A stretch of DNA of 64,000 nt. Source: Dehalococcoidia bacterium. Lineage in GTDB: Bacteria > Chloroflexota > Dehalococcoidia > UBA2979. Positions 54,610 to 62,083 of the stretch are shown in pieces. The stretch covers positions 1,024,001 to 1,088,000 of the forward strand of contig OZ244720.1 in NCBI GenBank assembly GCA_965219085.1. Direction: 5' to 3'. Both the position numbers and the translations under genes were made by a program. Numbering within the stretch: position 1 is the first letter of the stretch; each line of letters begins with the position of its first letter. The notes under the pieces were generated by a model. That model saw only the letters and a program-made list of their open reading frames with translations. It was not told the DNA's origin and made no database searches.

Positions 54610-56943
54610 CTAGTCCAGCCGCGCCCGCCGCAGCCGCAGCGAGTTCGCCATCACCGAGACCGAGCTGAGCGCCATCGCGCCCGCCGCCACGATGGGGTTG
54701 AGGAAGCCGTGCTCCCCGAACACCGGGCGCAGCACCGTCGGCGTCGAGGCGCCGTCGAACAGCGCCGCCAGCGCGACGTAGCCGAGCCCGGCGGCGACCG
54801 GGATGAGCAGCGTGTTGTAGCCGAACGCCCACAGCAAGTTCAGGCGCATCGTCCGCATCGTCGCGCGGCTGAGCGCGATCGCCGCCGCGACGCCGCCGAG
54901 GTCGGCGCGCATGAGCGTGACCGGTGCGGCCTCCAACGCAACGTCGGAGCCACCGCCGATCGCGATGCCGACGTCGGCCTGCACGAGCGCGGGGGCGTCG
55001 TTGATGCCGTCGCCCGCCATCGCGACGCGTCGGCCCTCGTCCTGTAGCGCGCGCACCGCCGCCGCCTTCCCGTCGGGCAGCACCTCGGCAATGACGCGCT
55101 CGATGCCGGCTTCGCGCGCGATCGCCTCGGCGGTCTCGCGACGGTCGCCCGTGAGCATCACCGTCTCGATACCGAGTACGCGGAGCCGCGCCACCGCGGC
55201 GCGCGTGGTCGGCCGCAGCCGGTCGGCGACGGTGACGAGGCCCGCCGGTTGGCCGTCGAGCGCGACGAGCAGCGGCGTCTCGCCGCGCGCCGCCGCGTCG
55301 GTGGCCGCCTCGCGGAGCGCGCCGAGGTCGACCCCCTCGGCTTCGAGCAGCGCGACCGTCCCGGATACCACCGCACGCCCCTCGACGGTCGCGACGACGC
55401 CCATGCCGGGCTCGGCGCGGAAGTCGTCCGGCCATGCGAGGTCGAGGCCTCGTCGCTCCGCCTCGCGCGCGAGCGCCGAGGCGATCGGGTGCTCAGAGCC
55501 GCGCTCGGCCGACGCGAGGAGCCGTAACAGCTCTTCCTCGCCCGCGAGCGCGCCGGCCAGCGACTCGACCGTGACGACCTCGGGGCGGCCCTCGGTGAGC
55601 GTGCCGGTCTTGTCGAGCGCGACGGCGTCGACCTCGTGCGCCTGTTCGAGCGCGCGGGCGTCGCGAATGAGCACGCCTGCCTCGGCGCCACGGCCGATGC
55701 CGACGGCGATGGCCGTGGGTGTGGCGAGGCCGAGCGCGCACGGGCAGGCGATGATGAGCACGGTGACGGCGTTGATCAGCGCGAACGTCAGCGCAGGCTC
55801 GGGACCGAGCACCCACCAGCCGGCGAACGTCAGCGCAGCGACGACCAGCACGGCGGGCACGAACACCGCCGCCACCCGGTCCACCAGCGCCTGGATCGGC
55901 GCCTTCGAGGCCTGCGCGAACTCGACGAGCTTGGTGATGCGCGCCAGCGCCGAGTCGGCGCCGACGGCCGTCGCACGGAGTTGCAGCGCGCCCGTTGCGT
56001 TCAGCGTCGCGCCGTAGACCGCGTCGCCCGGCCGCTTCGCGACCGCCATCGACTCGCCGGTCAGCATCGACTCGTCGACGGCCGACGCGCCCTCGACCAC
56101 CTCGCCGTCGACGGGGAGCCGCTCGCCCGGCCGCACGACGACGATGTCGCCGGGCTGCACGGCGGCGATGGGGATCTCGTACTCCTCGCCGTCCTCCAAC
56201 ACCCGCGCGAGCGTCGGGCGCAGCTCGATGAGGCGGCGGACGGCCTCGGACGAGCTCGCCCTGGCGCGCGCCTCGAGCAGCCGGCCGAAGAGCACGAGCG
56301 CGACGATGGCGGCGGCTGTGTCGAAGTAGACGTTGGCGCGCAGCCCTGCCTCGGGTGCGAAGAGGCCGGGGGCGAAGGTCGCGAGCACCGAGTACCAGTA
56401 GGCCGCGGAGGTGCCGATGGCGATGAGCGTGTGCATGTCGGCGGTGCGGTGTCGCGCCATGCGCCACGCGGCGGCGTGGAAGCGCCAGCCCGCCCAGTAC
56501 TGCACCGGCGTGGCGAGGACGAAGAAGAGCGGGTGCCATACCTGGTCCGGCACCGCGTCGAGGCCCGGCAGGCGCGTGTACGCCATCGAGCCGACGAGTA
56601 GCGCGGCGATCACGCCGGCGAAGATGGTGCGGGTGCGCAGCGCGCGGTACTCGGCCCGCCGTTCGGCGTCGAGGCTGTCTCGCGCCTCGTCCTCGTCGGC
56701 GCCCTCGCCGGGCAGCCAGACGTCGTAGCCGGCCCTGGTGACCGCCTCGCGGAGCGCGGCGAGCGGCGTGCCCGAGGTGGCGACCATGGCCTCCTCGGTG
56801 GCGAGGTTCACGCTCGCCGCCTCGACGCCCTCCACGGCGACAAGCGCGCGCTCGACGCGCCGCACGCAGGAGGCGCAGGTCATGCCGCGCACGGGCAGCC
56901 GCAGCTCCTCGAGCGTGGCGGGGGCGGGGTGCTCAGTGGTCAT
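54610..56943 (-). CDS. copA: Copper-translocating P1B-type ATPase
   Basis: GMTCASC HMA domain, [24 protein letters not shown] and MALSS motifs. Confidence 0.93.
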
Positions 56944-56997
56944 GCGAAGATGCTAACGGGTTGACCCATTGCGCGTGCGTCCGGTAGACACAATCTC

Positions 56998-57243
56998 ATG
57001 AGAAAGCGTCTCGAAGTCCTCGTCGATGACGGTGAATACAGTGCGATCCGCGAGGCTTCTTGGAAGCAGCGGCTGACCGTGTCCGAATGGGTGCGTCGCG
57101 CTTTGCGACAGGCGCTGGCCGGCGAAGCTGATGCGGTCGAGACGAAGCTGGCCGCGATCGCCAACGCGTCGCGGCACGGTTTCCCGACGGCGGATATCGA
57201 GGTCATGCTCGACGAGATCGAGCGAGGGCGAGCCCTCCGCTAA
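56998..57243 (+). CDS. Orphan RHH antitoxin (no cognate toxin downstream)
   Basis: MRKRLEVLVDD..TVSEWVRRALR..FPTADIEVMLDEIERG. Confidence 0.65.
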   Translation: MRKRLEVLVDDGEYSAIREASWKQRLTVSEWVRRALRQALAGEADAVETKLAAIANASRHGFPTADIEVMLDEIERGRALR

Positions 57244-57472
57244 GCTAAGCCCGCATCCACCGATCGAAGCTTGACGGGGCGGGATGCCGGGCTACCCGAG
57301 AGTTCGGCGGGCGTGCCGGCGTTCGCCGGGCAGTGCCGGGGGCGGGCCGGAGCGAGGAGCCGTCGCTCAGCGCCGCTCGGGGGCGCTGAGGGCGCGGGCG
57401 CGAGGGTGCGCGAGGCGTGCGCGGGCATGCTGGCGCGAGGCTCGGACCCGGGGCCGGCGCTGTGAGCGGGCG

Positions 57473-57858
57473 TCAGGCCGGGAGCGGTATCGCCCGTAGT
57501 CGCGCGAGCGCGGCTGCCAGCTGCCCGGCCCAGGGCCAGCGCTTCGGGAGGTGCAGGGTCCAGCGCCGGGCGGAGTGGGTGAGCCGTCCGGCGAGAGCGA
57601 AGTAGCGCCGCCTGAGCGTCCTGGTCGTGACGATTCCCTCGCCGAGCCCCAGCCGCGCCGTCCAGCGGGCGAGGTTGTGCGCGATCACCTGCACCGCGAG
57701 CCACGCCGCGTTCGCGGCGAAGCGGCCCGAGGGGAGATGATTGAGCCCGACGCCGTACTTGAGGTCACGGATCGCGTTCTCGATCTCGGCGTGACGGCGA
57801 TGGTCGGCCTCGAGCTCCATCATCTCCCCCGGCGCGGTCGGTGATGGAGGCGTGGTAG
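57473..57858 (-). pseudogene. IS1380 transposase C-terminal fragment
   Basis: Continues ..TYS|YHASITDRAG..EMMELEADHRRHAEIEN after removal of the nested IS, with an extra G near 57826-57830. Confidence 0.85.
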
Positions 57859-57950
57859 ACCGTATGGAGTGACCGGCTCCGAGTTCGCAAACTCGCGGGT
57901 TACAGACGCGAGGCCACAGAGCCGCATACGAAAGGGAGCCGGTCAGGAAC

Positions 57951-58898
57951 ATGACTACCACATACGCAGGGATGGATGCACACGCCGCGACGATCCGGGT
58001 AGCGGTGCTGGCGCCGGGGGCCGAGCGGCCCGAGGAGTGGCAGCTGACGAACGAGCGGCGGTCGGTGAAGCGGCTCGCGCAACGCCTGAAGCGCATGGCG
58101 CCGGGGCCGGTCGTGGCCTGCTACGAGGCGGGGCCGGGGGGCTTCGCGCTACAGCGCCAGCTCGAGGCCGAAGGCATCGAATGCCGGGTGATCGCGCCGG
58201 CGCTGATCCCGATGCGGCCCGGCGACCGCGTCAAGACCGACCGCCGCGACGCCAGGAAGCCGGCGGAGCTGCTGCGCGCGGACCTGCTCACGGCGGTGCA
58301 TCCCCCGACCATCGACCAGGAGGCGGTGCGCGACCTCTGCCGGGCGCGCGAGGACGCCGTGACCGACCGCACGCGGGCGCGCCACCGCCTGGCGAAGCTG
58401 CTGCTGCGGCGCGGCATCGCCTACGACGGGCGGAACTGGACGCTGCGGCACCGCCGCTGGCTGCTGACGCTGCGCTTCGAACACCGGGCCGCGCAGGCCA
58501 CCTTCGACGACTACCTGCGCGCGCTCGAGGGCGTGGAGGAGCGGCTGCGCACGCTGGAGCAGGAACTGGCCGCGTGTGCCGCCAGCGACGACTACCGCGA
58601 GGCGGTGGGGCTGCTGCGCTGCTTCCGCGGGGTCGACACGGTGACGGCGATGACGGTGGGGGCAGCGCTGCGCAAGCGCCGCGAGGGCCAGCCGGGCTGG
58701 GCCGTGGTGCTGGCCGACCGCGCGCAGGCCCGGCTCTATCGCCGCCACCGGCGGCTGGCCGCTCACGGCAAGCCGTCGGTCGTGGCGAACACTGCCGTCG
58801 CCCGTGAACTCGCGGGCTACCTGTGGGCGGTGCTGCGGCGTATCCCCGCATCCGCGGGCGGGCCGAAGGTCGGCGCCCGGGAGCAGGCGGCGGCCTGA
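57951..58898 (+). pseudogene. IS110/IS1111 recombinase with an in-frame internal deletion of the Tnp20 domain
   Basis: GMDAH, CYEAG and KTDRRDA DEDD motifs are present. The sequence jumps from GVDTVTAMTV to GAALRKRREGQP and lacks the catalytic-serine (SSG) segment. Confidence 0.8.
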
Positions 58899-59115
58899 TA
58901 CCACGCGCCCGGTCCGTGGCGAGGGCGGAGACGGCGGTACGCCGTTCCGGAGCAGGAGAGGATGGATGAGCGAGGGCAGGCTCAGGAGGATGCGCGGTAC
59001 AGCTATGCGGCAGCGGCGCCCAGCGCCGTCAACCCGCGACGCTAGACGGCGACCCCTCCCGGCGAAGCACGGTCATGCGGCAAGGCCCGAGGCAACCCGA
59101 CGTTCCTATAGAGAG

Positions 59116-60375
59116 TCAAGGGAGCGATCCGGCAGCCTCCTGCGCGGCGTGAGCGGCGAGGCGATTCGGGACAGAGGGATGCCCCGCTTCCAACCCCGCC
59201 CGCGCTGATCCGGGATCCGTGGATGCCCGTGTTGGCTGCCGTGGGTGCTCGCCGTCCACAGACGCGGGGGGCCCGCCCTCACAGGCGCGGGGGGCGCCGG
59301 GAGTCGAGCCGGGCGACAGCTGCGTGGCGTATCGCGCCAGATCGGCAGTGAGCGTTCGATAGAGCTGGCGAGCGACATAGCGCTTCAGGCAGCGGATGAT
59401 CTCGCGTTTGGACTTACCCTCCGCAGTGCGCTTCGCCACGTAAGCTCTGGTGCGGGCGCAATAGCGCAGGCGGACGAGCACGATCCGGTACAGCGCGCTG
59501 TTGGCCTGCCGGTCGCCGCCCGGGTTCAGGCGATGTCGCTGCGTGCGCCCGGAGGACGCCTCGAGGGGCGCGGCGCCGCAGAGCCGTGCGAAGGCGGCCT
59601 CGCTCGACAGCCGTCCGATGTTCTCGCCGGGGGTGACGAGTAACTGCGCGGCGTTCACGATGCCGACACCGGGCAGTGCGAGGGAGCCGGGTGCGACCCT
59701 CTCCACAAGTGACCGCAGCGCCTGGTCGAGATCGGCGACCTCGCGGTCCAGCTCGGCGACGTGGTGAGCGACGCTGCGCAGCGCGAGCTTCGCGGCCTGT
59801 AGTGGTTGGTCGAGCCGGGCCCTGTCCGGACGGAATCGCGCGCACTGCCGCGCCTTCGCGGGCAGGGTCTGCTGCGGCAGCGCCTCGCGGAGTTCCGCCG
59901 GCGCCGTGGCGATCAGGTCGCGCAGCTGCAGCAGCGCCGCACTGCGGGCCTTGACCGCGGCTGAACGAGCATTTGCGAGGGTGCGGATCGACTCGACGAC
60001 ACCGTTCGTGGCCTTGGGCAGCACCTGCGCCGTACCCGCCAGCACCTGCCTCGCGGCGGCCTCGGCGTCGATCGGGTCTGACTTACCCTGGCGCCGGCGC
60101 GTGTGCCGGTGCGGCTGGCTGACCTCGCGCACATCCAGCCCCTGTGCGAGCAACCAGCGTGTGAGCCCGGCCCCGTAGGACGAGGCGCCCTCCACGGCGA
60201 TCGTCGCGATCGTGCCGAACGCCTCCAGCCACTGGTGCAACTCCCGGTAGCCCCGCGCGGTCGCTGGGAACTCGGCATCCCCGAGTCTCTCTCCTCGATC
60301 GTCGAGTGCGACTGCGTGGTGCGTGCGGGAGTGGGTATCCACCCCTCCGATGACACCGCTCCGCGTTTCCGGCAT
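59116..60375 (-). CDS. IS110-family recombinase (transposase)
   Basis: GGVDTH, VEGASSYG, KSDPIDA, EASSGR (catalytic Ser), HRLNPGGDRQANSAL and CLKRYVAR. Confidence 0.93.
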   Translation of the reverse strand: MPETRSGVIGGVDTHSRTHHAVALDDRGERLGDAEFPATARGYRELHQWLEAFGTIATIAVEGASSYGAGLTRWLLAQGLDVREVSQPHRHTRRRQGKSDPIDAEAAARQVLAGTAQVLPKATNGVVESIRTLANARSAAVKARSAALLQLRDLIATAPAELREALPQQTLPAKARQCARFRPDRARLDQPLQAAKLALRSVAHHVAELDREVADLDQALRSLVERVAPGSLALPGVGIVNAAQLLVTPGENIGRLSSEAAFARLCGAAPLEASSGRTQRHRLNPGGDRQANSALYRIVLVRLRYCARTRAYVAKRTAEGKSKREIIRCLKRYVARQLYRTLTADLARYATQLSPGSTPGAPRACEGGPPASVDGEHPRQPTRASTDPGSARAGLEAGHPSVPNRLAAHAAQEAAGSLP

Positions 60376-60399
60376 GCTCGCCGTACCTTCCTGCGGGGA

Positions 60400-60590
60400 G
60401 GTGTGTGACCGGGTCGTGGTGGGCGGACAGAACAGCGATGAGGCAACTCTGAGCCAGGTTCCTATGAGGTCACGCCACCCGCGGCCCGGTCACTTGGTGG
60501 ATGCGAGGAGGGCGGAGCCGACACGTCGGATTGAGGACACCGCTCGCGGTGGGTCAGCGAATATCTAGGTCAGGCTCCGTCCTTCTCGCT
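60400..60590 (-). ncRNA. Putative bridge RNA of the inner IS110 (target-binding and donor-binding loops)
   Basis: Stems at 60573-60579/60513-60519 and 60485-60493/60405-60413 enclose guide segments that match the target flanks and the element ends. Confidence 0.75.
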
Positions 60591-60724
60591 GTGAGTATCT
60601 TCGCTGCGAATATCAGAGTGACACGTCGTCGAAGCAGCGCCCTCGTTCGTCCATCTCCCCCCGTTCCGGAGCCGGATCGCCACGACCACCGCCGGTGCTG
60701 CTTGACAGCCGGTCACTCCATATC

Positions 60725-61486
60725 AGCTGTACGTCGCGAAGAGCGCGAGCTGTGAGCCGGGCGTCGGCTTCACGCGCCGCACGATGAGCCGCACCGCGCT
60801 GGCGTCCGCCATGTGCTGGAACGGCGTGTACGTCGTCTCGGCGACAGCGGCGCCGCCCGGCAGCCAGTACGGGATCGGCGTCCAGTCCGCTTCCGGTATC
60901 GCCTCGATCAGCGTGCGTACGTTCGGCTGCTGGCGAATCGTGACCGAGAAGCGGACGTCCTGCTTGCGGCAGGCGGCGACGACCCCGTGGTTGTAGAAGC
61001 CGCTGTCGGCTCGCATCGTGAGCTGCCCGCTCGCCCCGGCGTCGCGGACCCGCGCCACCGTCTCACGCAGGAAGTGGGCGGCGCCGCGCCGGGTCCCGCT
61101 CCGGCCGCCCATGCGCGGGCGAGCAATGCGCGGCTGAGGCGGTCGAGCTGGCGGACGTGGCCCCAGCGGAAGCTGCGCAGGAAGGTCCCGAGGGTGGACG
61201 GCGCCTTCACGGTGCAGCCGAGCACGCGCCCGGCGCCGCCGGCGCGCATCGCATCGGCGTCGTCGATGCAGTCGCCGCCGGCGAGCGCCGAGGCGACCAG
61301 GGTCAGCAGCTTGTCGCCGGCGTTCGCCCGCCCCGGCGCGTCACCGAGGTCGAGATAGCGCTCGGCAAGATCGGGGAGACCGAGACGACCGGCGAGCGTG
61401 GCGGGGAGCAGCAGGCCCGCGTGGTCCACGAGGCGGTCGTCGTCGAAGGCGATGTCTATCCGGTCGGGGTCGCTCGTTGGTAGCAT
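60725..61486 (-). pseudogene. IS1380 transposase N-terminal and middle fragments, with internal deletion and frameshift near 61090
   Basis: FDDDRLVDHAGL, APSTLGTFLRSF, then in another frame GAAHFLRE..RADSGFY..RLIVRR. Confidence 0.85.
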
Positions 61487-61627
61487 CGAATGGTTGCTCC
61501 CTGTGGCTCGGACGTGATTCGTACAAAACCATTGTCCCAGCTACAGCGAAGCACCCAACCTCAGCCGCTCGCGCGCCCTCCGCTAAGCTAAGGGACGCCC
61601 CCGGCAGCACGTCGGTAGGAACGTCCT

Positions 61628-62083
61628 CTACGCGTCCTCGATAATCCAGCGGTCCGTGTCGCGCTGCCAGCTCGGCAGCGGCTCATCACCGAAGAACAGC
61701 GCGATCTCGCGCTCCGCGCTCTCCGGCCCGTCCGAGCCATGCACCAGGTTGCGCCCCACATCGAGGCCGAGGTCGCCGCGGATCGTGCCGGGCGCGGCCT
61801 CCGTCGGGCGTGTCGCCCCCATCGTCTGGCGCGCGGCGGCGATCGCATCGGGGCCCTCGAGCACGGCCGCCACCAGCGGGCTCGACGTGATGTAGTCGAC
61901 GAGCCCGGCGAAGAACGGCTTCCCGTCGTGCTCCGCGTAGTGCCGGCGCGCGAGCGCTTCGTCGACGTGCACGAGCCGCAGCCCGACGATGCGCAGGCCG
62001 CGCGCTTCGAGGCGCCCCAGCACCTCTCCGATGAGTCCTCGTTGCACGGCGTCGGGCTTGACCAGGATCAGCGTGCGCTCCAC
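61628..62083 (-). CDS. ndk: Nucleoside diphosphate kinase
   Basis: [26 protein letters not shown] and NLVHGSD. Confidence 0.97.

Follow-up and report, generated by a model that had tools for sequence, protein, structure and literature searches.

How did three insertion sequences (ISs) come to lie one inside another at a single place in a bacterial chromosome, and was each of them directed to the element that it interrupts? The question is raised by a stretch of 64,000 nt (the window), bases 1024001-1088000 of the 3.31-Mb single-contig genome of a Dehalococcoidia bacterium (G000, approximately 72% G+C), where an IS1380 element is split by an IS1111-type middle element (MID), and the RNA gene of MID is split in turn by an IS110-type inner element (INNER). 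This three-level nest (nest1) is real, and it is highly probable that it was built by successive site-specific, RNA-guided insertions. Its junctions were set by a blast of positions 57100-61750 against the whole genome, with uninterrupted paralogues of each element as empty-site references, and the elements were identified by open reading frame (ORF) listing together with Pfam, NF033539 (cutoff of 180 bits) and NF033542 (cutoff of 140 bits). The nest is composed of the following features.

57233-57249, no strand: left copy of a 17-nt direct repeat (CCCTCCGCTAAGCTAAG), which ends in CTAAG, the 5-nt target duplication expected of IS1380
57250-57858, minus strand: 3' part of the IS1380 remnant, which contains the C-terminus of the transposase, an additional base at ~57832 and, as terminal inverted repeat, CCCGCATCCACCGA
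57859-59099, plus strand: left part of MID, with the left end ACCGTATGGAGTGACCGGC, the recombinase gene (57951-58898) and the putative target-binding module of the 3' RNA
58998-59005, plus strand: target guide of MID, TACAGCTA, reverse complement of the IS1380 site TAG^CTGTA
59100-60606 (+/-1), minus strand: INNER, an apparently intact IS110-type element of ~1507 nt, with its recombinase gene at 59116-60375 and upstream non-coding sequence at 60376-60605
60557-60565, minus strand: predicted left target guide of INNER, GATATTCGC, at positions 41-49 of the element, with the same sequence as the left half of the MID target read on its top strand
INNER termini, in the order that they take in an end-to-end junction: ...TATAGGAACGT, then AGCGAAGATAC...
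60607-60726, plus strand: right part of MID, with the rest of the putative donor-binding module (CGAATATCAGAGTGAC...) and the right end ...GCCGGTCACTCCATATCAG
60727-61579, minus strand: 5' part of the IS1380 remnant, with N-terminal pieces of the transposase, a 172-nt deletion at ~61088 and the terminal 17-nt inverted repeat missing
61576-61592, no strand: right copy of the 17-nt direct repeat, occupying the place of the lost IS1380 inverted repeat

Every junction resolves within 1-2 bases when it is compared with uninterrupted copies in the same genome. Intact IS1380 copies read straight through ...GAAGGCGTGGTA|GCTGTACGTC..., and the window copy is split at 57858/60727, where the sequence runs from GGCGTGGTAG into MID (ACCGTATGG...CATATCAG) and out again into CTGTACG; set against the uninterrupted reading, this means that MID occupies 57859-60726. 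Intact MID copies read ...GGCAACCCGCGAATATCAG..., and in the window this becomes ...GGCAACCCG, the insert ACGTTCC...CTTCGCT and then GCGAATATCAG, which gives the bounds of INNER. The ambiguity that is left amounts to 2 nt for MID (AG, common to both of its junctions) and 1 nt for INNER (G).

The outermost element is heavily damaged. Its transposase is recovered as three pieces of the Pfam domain DDE_Tnp_1_4 (PF13701) on the minus strand, at 60908-61486, 60723-61112 and 57473-58096, while an intact paralogue (L140, genome 294719-296344) encodes a transposase of 454 aa that scores 332 bits with NF033539 against the cutoff of 180. Relative to this paralogue, the window copy is without 172 nt at ~61088, with the DLDST aspartate block gone and the frame shifted, and the extra base at ~57832 gives a +1 frameshift. 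It retains one inverted repeat and the CTAAG duplication, the duplications of the other IS1380 copies being of 4-5 bp and of the CTWAN type; eight paralogues have both inverted repeats, most with a clear 4-5 bp duplication and three with a shared stretch of 3-4 nt only. At the right end, the paralogues close with ...GCCCT followed by TCTTCGGTGGATCAGGG and the duplication, and the window has ...GCCCT followed by CCGCTAAGCTAAG instead. The 17-nt terminal inverted repeat at 61579, which is still present in all paralogues and in a second nest described below, has therefore been lost and replaced by CCGCTAAG, a point that the earlier note on this DNA does not contain, and it is this replacement that creates the direct repeat 57233-57249/61576-61592. 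On the right-hand side, the sequence has the appearance of a second copy of the uninterrupted target joined on at the microhomology CCCT.

The middle element is damaged as well. The recombinase gene of MID in the window (57951-58898) keeps the DEDD domain only, given that an in-frame deletion of 189 nt at 58654/58655 has removed residues 248-310 (63 aa), including the SSG serine motif, with respect to the intact 390-aa paralogue. Intact MID copies are found at genome 756318-757875 and 3084430-3085992 and encode the 390-aa recombinase with both domains, an intact paralogue (L020) matching PF01548 and PF02371 and scoring 256 bits with NF033542. For INNER, the recombinase of 419 aa has both IS110 domains (PF01548, 1.3e-21; PF02371, 3.2e-15) and scores 158.2 bits with NF033542 against the cutoff of 140. 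Most of the decay of the outer two elements (deletions, frameshift and lost end) is ordinary erosion and not an effect of the insertions.

The earlier note had read the locus, which it placed at 57232-61592 and which in this extent takes in the 17-nt direct repeat flanking the whole nest, as three levels of which only the innermost is intact: an IS1380 transposase that is split, deleted and frameshifted, an IS1111-type recombinase deprived of its catalytic-serine segment, an IS1111-type RNA that is split, and an apparently intact IS110 inside it. Pfam and paralogue alignment recover all of these levels and bear out each point, with INNER interrupting the 3' non-coding region of MID in the putative donor-binding loop and being the only element that is apparently functional. 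Its view that each junction can be reconstructed to the base holds to the extent that the empty-site paralogues fix the junctions, and has to be relaxed by the 1-2 nt that remain ambiguous.

Insertion of MID into IS1380 is a recurrent event, and its position matches a guide carried by MID itself. The guide rules applied here are those published for bridge and seek RNAs (PMC11208160; PMC11187229). The survey covered 16 further full-length loci among the matches listed, in G000 and three sister species (G004 contributing 5 of 12 matches). The MID copies of G004 (5/5) and of G013 (4/5) sit at the identical IS1380 site as that of the window, which makes 9 of the 16 other full-length copies, and the IS1380 flanks at this site comprise six sequence-distinct variants, the window included. 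Both G000 copies (2/2) have the guide TACACCTA and the site CCCTAG^GTGTA, precisely where a 1.18-kb IS5-family element terminates, and all four G015 copies have the guide CTCACCC and the site TAG^GGTGAGG. In each case, from TACAGCTA and IS1380 to TACACCTA and the IS5-family ends and to CTCACCC and the G015 site, the bases on either side of the insertion point are, in reverse complement, exactly those of the guide. When 21 unique element/site pairs are taken together, metagenome contigs included, the guides predict 83 of the 105 right-flank bases; permuted guide/site pairings predict 36 +/- 5, and none of 20000 reaches 83. Two rows score 1/5 because the guide is one base out of register. The variants of MID differ by single guide bases with a matching change in the landing site, indicating natural retargeting. 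Landing in IS1380 as an off-target look-alike of the IS5-end site was also considered, and was dropped because the window guide matches IS1380 exactly. A metagenome scan with a conserved 25-nt piece of the MID 3' region returned 19 much more diverged relatives.

MID belongs to the IS1111 group by its subterminal inverted repeats of 15 bp (TATGGAGTGACCGGC and its complement) and its non-coding region of 326 nt downstream of the recombinase gene, which are hallmarks of the group (PMC11187229). According to where the shared AG is assigned, the left extension beyond the repeats measures 4-6 bp and the right one 2-4 bp, and the same source gives 7 (or 6) bp and 3 bp, respectively, for the group. 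The alignment of the 3' region folds into two paralogous modules, each with an internal loop, conserved closing stems and a variable distal hairpin. In this fold, 95.4% of the cells are paired versus 25-45% when the partners are slid, and the covariation score is 0.177 versus 0.092 in shuffles (0/500); five pairs, every one of them in the first module, show compensatory changes. This module bears the target guide, with TAGAC 3' of it; the second bears ACGGTC and ATATCAGA, which match the sequence formed when the two ends of the element are joined (...CATATCAG + ACCGT...). The modules would thus be the target-binding and donor-binding loops of a bridge or seek RNA; the guide match and its recurrence are observed directly, and the RNA is deduced from the alignment. 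The region has the top-strand complement 5' and the bottom-strand match 3', and this order, with the top-strand complement first, is the one that PMC11187229 reports for IS1111 elements.

The RNA of INNER appears to lie on the other side of its gene. The element has 230 nt of non-coding sequence upstream of the gene and 16 nt downstream, and the upstream region folds into two domains (z = -4.55; 0/200 shuffles as good). On its 5' side the first domain has GAUAUUCGC, which reads as the left half of the target does on the top strand, and on its 3' side CAAUCCG, which pairs with the right half of the target, CGGGTTG, with one G-U. The second domain has AUAGGAAC, identical over 8 nt to the right end of the element, and CAUCGCU, which pairs at 6 of 7 positions with the left end. 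In 5000 shuffles of the upstream region the left-target 9-mer was reached 4 times, the right-end 8-mer 17 times and both together never. The guides of IS621 are arranged in the same way, the left ones pairing with the bottom strand and the right ones with the top (PMC11208160). The upstream region of INNER is accordingly predicted to encode a two-loop bridge RNA. In G029, an IS110 relative with 69% identity has an ambiguous right boundary and target, and it provides one supporting pair, ATAGGAGC in both the loop and the right end versus ATAGGAAC in INNER.

The site of INNER in MID, AGGCAACCCG^CGAATATC, falls in the inner stem and 3' guide of the putative donor-binding module. Matches to INNER of at least 90% identity were found in four (G000, G015, G022 and G018) of the 61 genomes searched. 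All six full-length copies (two in G000 and four in G015) lie at the same position of MID and in the same relative orientation, with a junction ambiguity of 1 nt and no target duplication. The four G015 copies are in three MID-family hosts that are 85%, 77% (two copies) and 70% identical to MID, and the two 77% hosts are at different chromosomal places. Of the G022 copies, two are truncated, with the right junction unchanged and with flanks in common, and a third has decayed at the junction; the G018 match is a fragment of 151 nt with no MID sequence adjoining, which was left out of the counts. INNER is 98.3% identical between G000 and G015 (L013-L016 versus 59100-60605 of the window), whereas the hosts are only 70-85% identical to MID, which suggests recent spread or transfer of INNER. 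The 19 metagenome contigs, diverged as they are elsewhere, have the 25-nt stretch with the INNER site unchanged. When a 22-nt end of INNER was used to scan metagenomes, no contigs were returned, and the host range of INNER is thus drawn from the genomes searched only. Two loci, L134 of G004 (~2201) and L136 of G022 (~2145), were considered as MID copies hit by INNER and were excluded from the count because the sequence beyond the break is not INNER; they break off 2-4 nt from the INNER insertion point and go on into unrelated sequence, which in L136 may be another insertion sequence.

The elements that receive MID in G000 receive other elements as well. The ends of the IS5-family element (...CAGACCATCC plus a YTAR duplication; L139, 757800-759150, and ~15 other copies) are a common landing pad: two copies of MID adjoin them directly, and so do at least two of IS1380 (genome 294719 and 1938606). 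A second IS1111-type family of ~1519 bp, with a recombinase of 362 aa that scores 232 bits with NF033542 (L138, 1936600-1938450; also 1259821-1261392 and 1333210-1334569), is inserted in three other IS1380 copies, always at GGGCAGAG^TGGGTGAG, which is equivalent to ~57575 of the window. The 3' region of this family holds CACCCACT, the complement of its IS1380 site, and relatives with ~88% identity lie at a different repeated site, ...CGCTCAAGAG^CTACCGCCC....

Several observations weigh against guided, element-on-element insertion or reduce the support for it. The evidence consists entirely of DNA from metagenome-assembled genomes (MAGs). The 8-mer TAGCTGTA occurs 70 times in G000, versus ~22 expected from base composition, and the longer IS1380 context GGTAGCTGTAC accompanies it in just 8 cases; with 70 such sites, guide matching alone may not account for MID being almost confined to IS1380, and loss of harmful insertions (survivorship) together with movement of IS1380::MID composites may contribute to its distribution. 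The 3' region of one MID copy, taken singly, folds no better than shuffles (z +1.43), so that the structure of the MID RNA rests on the alignment, and the second (bottom-strand) guide of MID is weakly defined, TAGAC being its only constant part. In INNER, the core dinucleotide does not receive a clean assignment. A search of Rfam release 15 with the nest, an intact MID copy and INNER gave no match, and there is therefore no curated RNA family to cite for either RNA. The conservation of the 25-nt stretch is partly circular, given that the contigs were found by exact match to it. The 14-mer around the INNER site occurs only twice in G000, in the two intact MID copies, and both of these perfect sites are unoccupied. 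The copy counts are not counts of independent events: L013/L014 and L017/L018 share hosts. Finally, the second nest of G000 (nest2, genome 3172963-3176859; L022, 3172663-3177100) is a recombinant mosaic and not an independent repeat of nest1.

Nest2 is composed of MID, INNER and the 5' part of IS1380, equivalent to 57859-61579 of the window. Over a tract of 2.4 kb (59089-61470) it differs from nest1 by 2 nt and has the 172-nt IS1380 deletion in common with it, while the left part of its MID is ~94% identical to that of nest1, has a full recombinase gene (380-aa ORF) and another guide (AAGCACTG), and its left flank is not IS1380. A near-identical tract joined to a diverged left part shows that tracts have been exchanged between the copies, in one direction or the other. 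An inverted IS1380 3' fragment lies ~7 kb from nest2 (genome 3165430-3165801). It is from this exchange that the most serious alternative draws its strength, namely that nest1 was copied from another nested locus through recombination or gene conversion, or travelled as a ready-made IS1380::MID::INNER composite with transposase from an intact IS1380; the targeting would still be real, but the three insertions would not have taken place at this locus. The near-identity of the tract and the common deletion agree with it, as does the fact that nest2 keeps the IS1380 end lost from nest1. Nonetheless, the IS1380 halves of nest1 are in register around MID and the MID halves around INNER, as simple insertions predict, and we regard this alternative as rather unlikely.

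A mis-join of repeat copies in the MAG, giving rise to the nest or a part of it, is much less credible and can be considered very unlikely. All three elements are multi-copy, the 2.4-kb near-identical tract with diverged flanks is what collapsed or chimeric repeats would mimic, and none of the metagenome contigs examined spans the whole 4.3 kb in a single record. However, contigs from other runs bridge junctions of the nest: those of run X15 cover both outer flank junctions (56900-57284 and 61541-61797) with zero differences, a 1770-nt contig of run X2 (58938-60731) bridges both INNER junctions, and another contig of X2 (57829-58416) bridges the left MID/IS1380 junction by 30 nt. The same architecture is also present in the genomes of other species. 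In two other runs a contig joint skips exactly 1507 nt, from 59098 to 60606, which is the uninterrupted form of MID, and another INNER contig runs into the 70%-type host. As for three unrelated random insertions stacked by chance in an IS-crowded genome, this is extremely improbable, for even if G000 is IS-rich (~10 IS1380, ~16 IS5-family and at least 11 copies of a further IS1111-type family) and the window nest alone is a single observation, the MID/IS1380 junction is found at 9 other loci in two species, the INNER/MID junction and orientation are the same in 6/6 full-length copies, whose hosts share 70-85% identity with MID, guides and sites match each other, and no permutation out of 20000 equals the guide/flank covariation.

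Successive guided insertion, as the preferred reading, would have proceeded as follows. IS1380 would have inserted between a small ORF and ndk, as the CTAAG duplication suggests; MID would then have entered the IS1380 transposase gene at GGCGTGGTAG^CTGTACG, by means of the guide TACAGCTA on the 5' side of its target-binding loop; and INNER would have entered MID at AGGCAACCCG^CGAATATC, by means of the 5' bridge RNA guides GAUAUUCGC (left) and CAAUCCG (right). Each insertion would have disabled its host, MID by splitting the IS1380 transposase gene and INNER by splitting the MID RNA gene. Through later erosion IS1380 would have lost 172 nt and one of its ends, and the MID recombinase gene 189 nt, leaving INNER alone apparently functional. 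The chain of element-on-element targeting, each insertion disabling its host, that the earlier note had proposed is supported, more strongly than the letters of the window alone could show, by guides that match their sites, by the same IS1380 site being occupied in 9 of the 16 other full-length MID copies and by the same MID site being occupied in 6/6 full-length INNER copies. The nesting order that the note suggested to look for at other loci is seen again in nest2, which as a mosaic does not count as independent, while the MID/IS1380 and INNER/MID junctions each recur in relatives.

The position of the INNER site gives this chain a further meaning. The donor-binding loop must match the conserved ends of MID and is, therefore, the least changeable part of the MID family; an RNA directed at this loop would enable INNER to attack many diverged MID lineages. 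INNER is probably a dedicated hyperparasite of IS1111-type elements, with its bridge RNA aimed at the donor-binding loop of the host, and part of an RNA-guided "food chain" in which the MID variants are directed against IS1380 and IS5-family elements. If so, a host could not reprogram its donor loop without changing its own ends, which would give INNER a broad and durable host range. That an interrupted element serves as a safe harbour for the next is consistent with the data and the literature, and that such insertions act as a brake on IS spread is speculation. In G000, four IS1380 copies and two MID copies are uninterrupted; one IS1380 copy and the nest2 fragment have been hit by MID, and three IS1380 copies by the second IS1111-type family.

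The public runs that hold the window stretch are mostly labelled sponge metagenome, and the INNER recombinase has close relatives in only two records of the named genome collection, both of Dehalococcoidia bacterium MAGs. The IS1380 insertion is intergenic, between a small ORF of 81 aa on the plus strand (56998-57243), whose NikA-like/ribbon-helix-helix (RHH) match is weak (E 0.0047, below cutoff), and ndk on the minus strand (61628-62083), which encodes nucleoside diphosphate kinase (PF00334, 1.8e-53). Further to the left, at 54610-56943 on the minus strand, there is an ORF of 777 aa, which we take, from the look of its sequence, to be a heavy-metal P-type ATPase. For genome biology, the data illustrate how ISs can build up in a small genome of symbiont type and for the most part disrupt one another and not host genes.

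Programmed insertion of IS110-family elements into other mobile elements is already known. What is new here is a guide RNA apparently aimed at the guide-RNA gene of another element, at a loop that the victim cannot freely change, which would be a conflict between RNA-guided elements; two stacked relations (IS1380 hit by MID, and MID hit by INNER), both recurring across species; and natural retargeting within the MID family, from IS1380 with TACAGCTA to IS5-family ends with TACACCTA. In the open full-text literature, one 2026 preprint included and subscription-only papers and supplements outside the scope, no IS110-family element was reported to target the guide-RNA gene of another element. For the engineering of bridge recombinases, the MID family offers ~20 natural guide/target pairs for one IS1111-type scaffold.

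Among the known systems, INNER resembles IS621 (Durrant et al. 2024, PMC11208160) in its long left end with 5' target-binding and 3' donor-binding domains and in left guides that are identical to the top strand and right guides that are complementary to it; it differs in that IS621 targets repetitive extragenic palindromic (REP) sequences and in that INNER is known here from sequence only. MID, in turn, is similar to the seekRNA elements ISEc11, ISPa11 and ISKpn4 of the IS1111 group (PMC11187229) in having a downstream RNA with the top-strand complement 5' of the bottom-strand match and in natural reprogramming between close relatives. Its RNA differs from theirs in being read as two paralogous modules of the form guide-ATGCGGCA-hairpin-CAACCCGCGA-guide, a reading drawn from the alignment and not from a published structure. 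IS4321 and IS5075 reportedly land in the inverted repeats of Tn21. Like them, MID is of the IS1111 type, has subterminal inverted repeats and takes one fixed position in another transposon, and the two G000 copies at IS5-family ends behave likewise; unlike IS4321 and IS5075, the MID variant of the window hits the interior of a transposase gene, and its retargeting can be traced to single guide bases. The closest parallel to INNER is offered by ISEc21 of the IS110 group, which is directed to a conserved segment of the transposase genes of the IS3 family (Siddiquee et al. 2024, PMC11187229). In both, an upstream RNA guides, or in INNER would guide, an IS110-family element into a conserved and essential part of another IS, and the bottom-strand match precedes the top-strand match. 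The target that the same source gives for ISEc21 is, however, protein-coding (the codons around the second D of DDE), whereas that of INNER would be the donor-binding loop of a guide-RNA gene, and in the nest described here two such targeting relations are stacked one upon the other.

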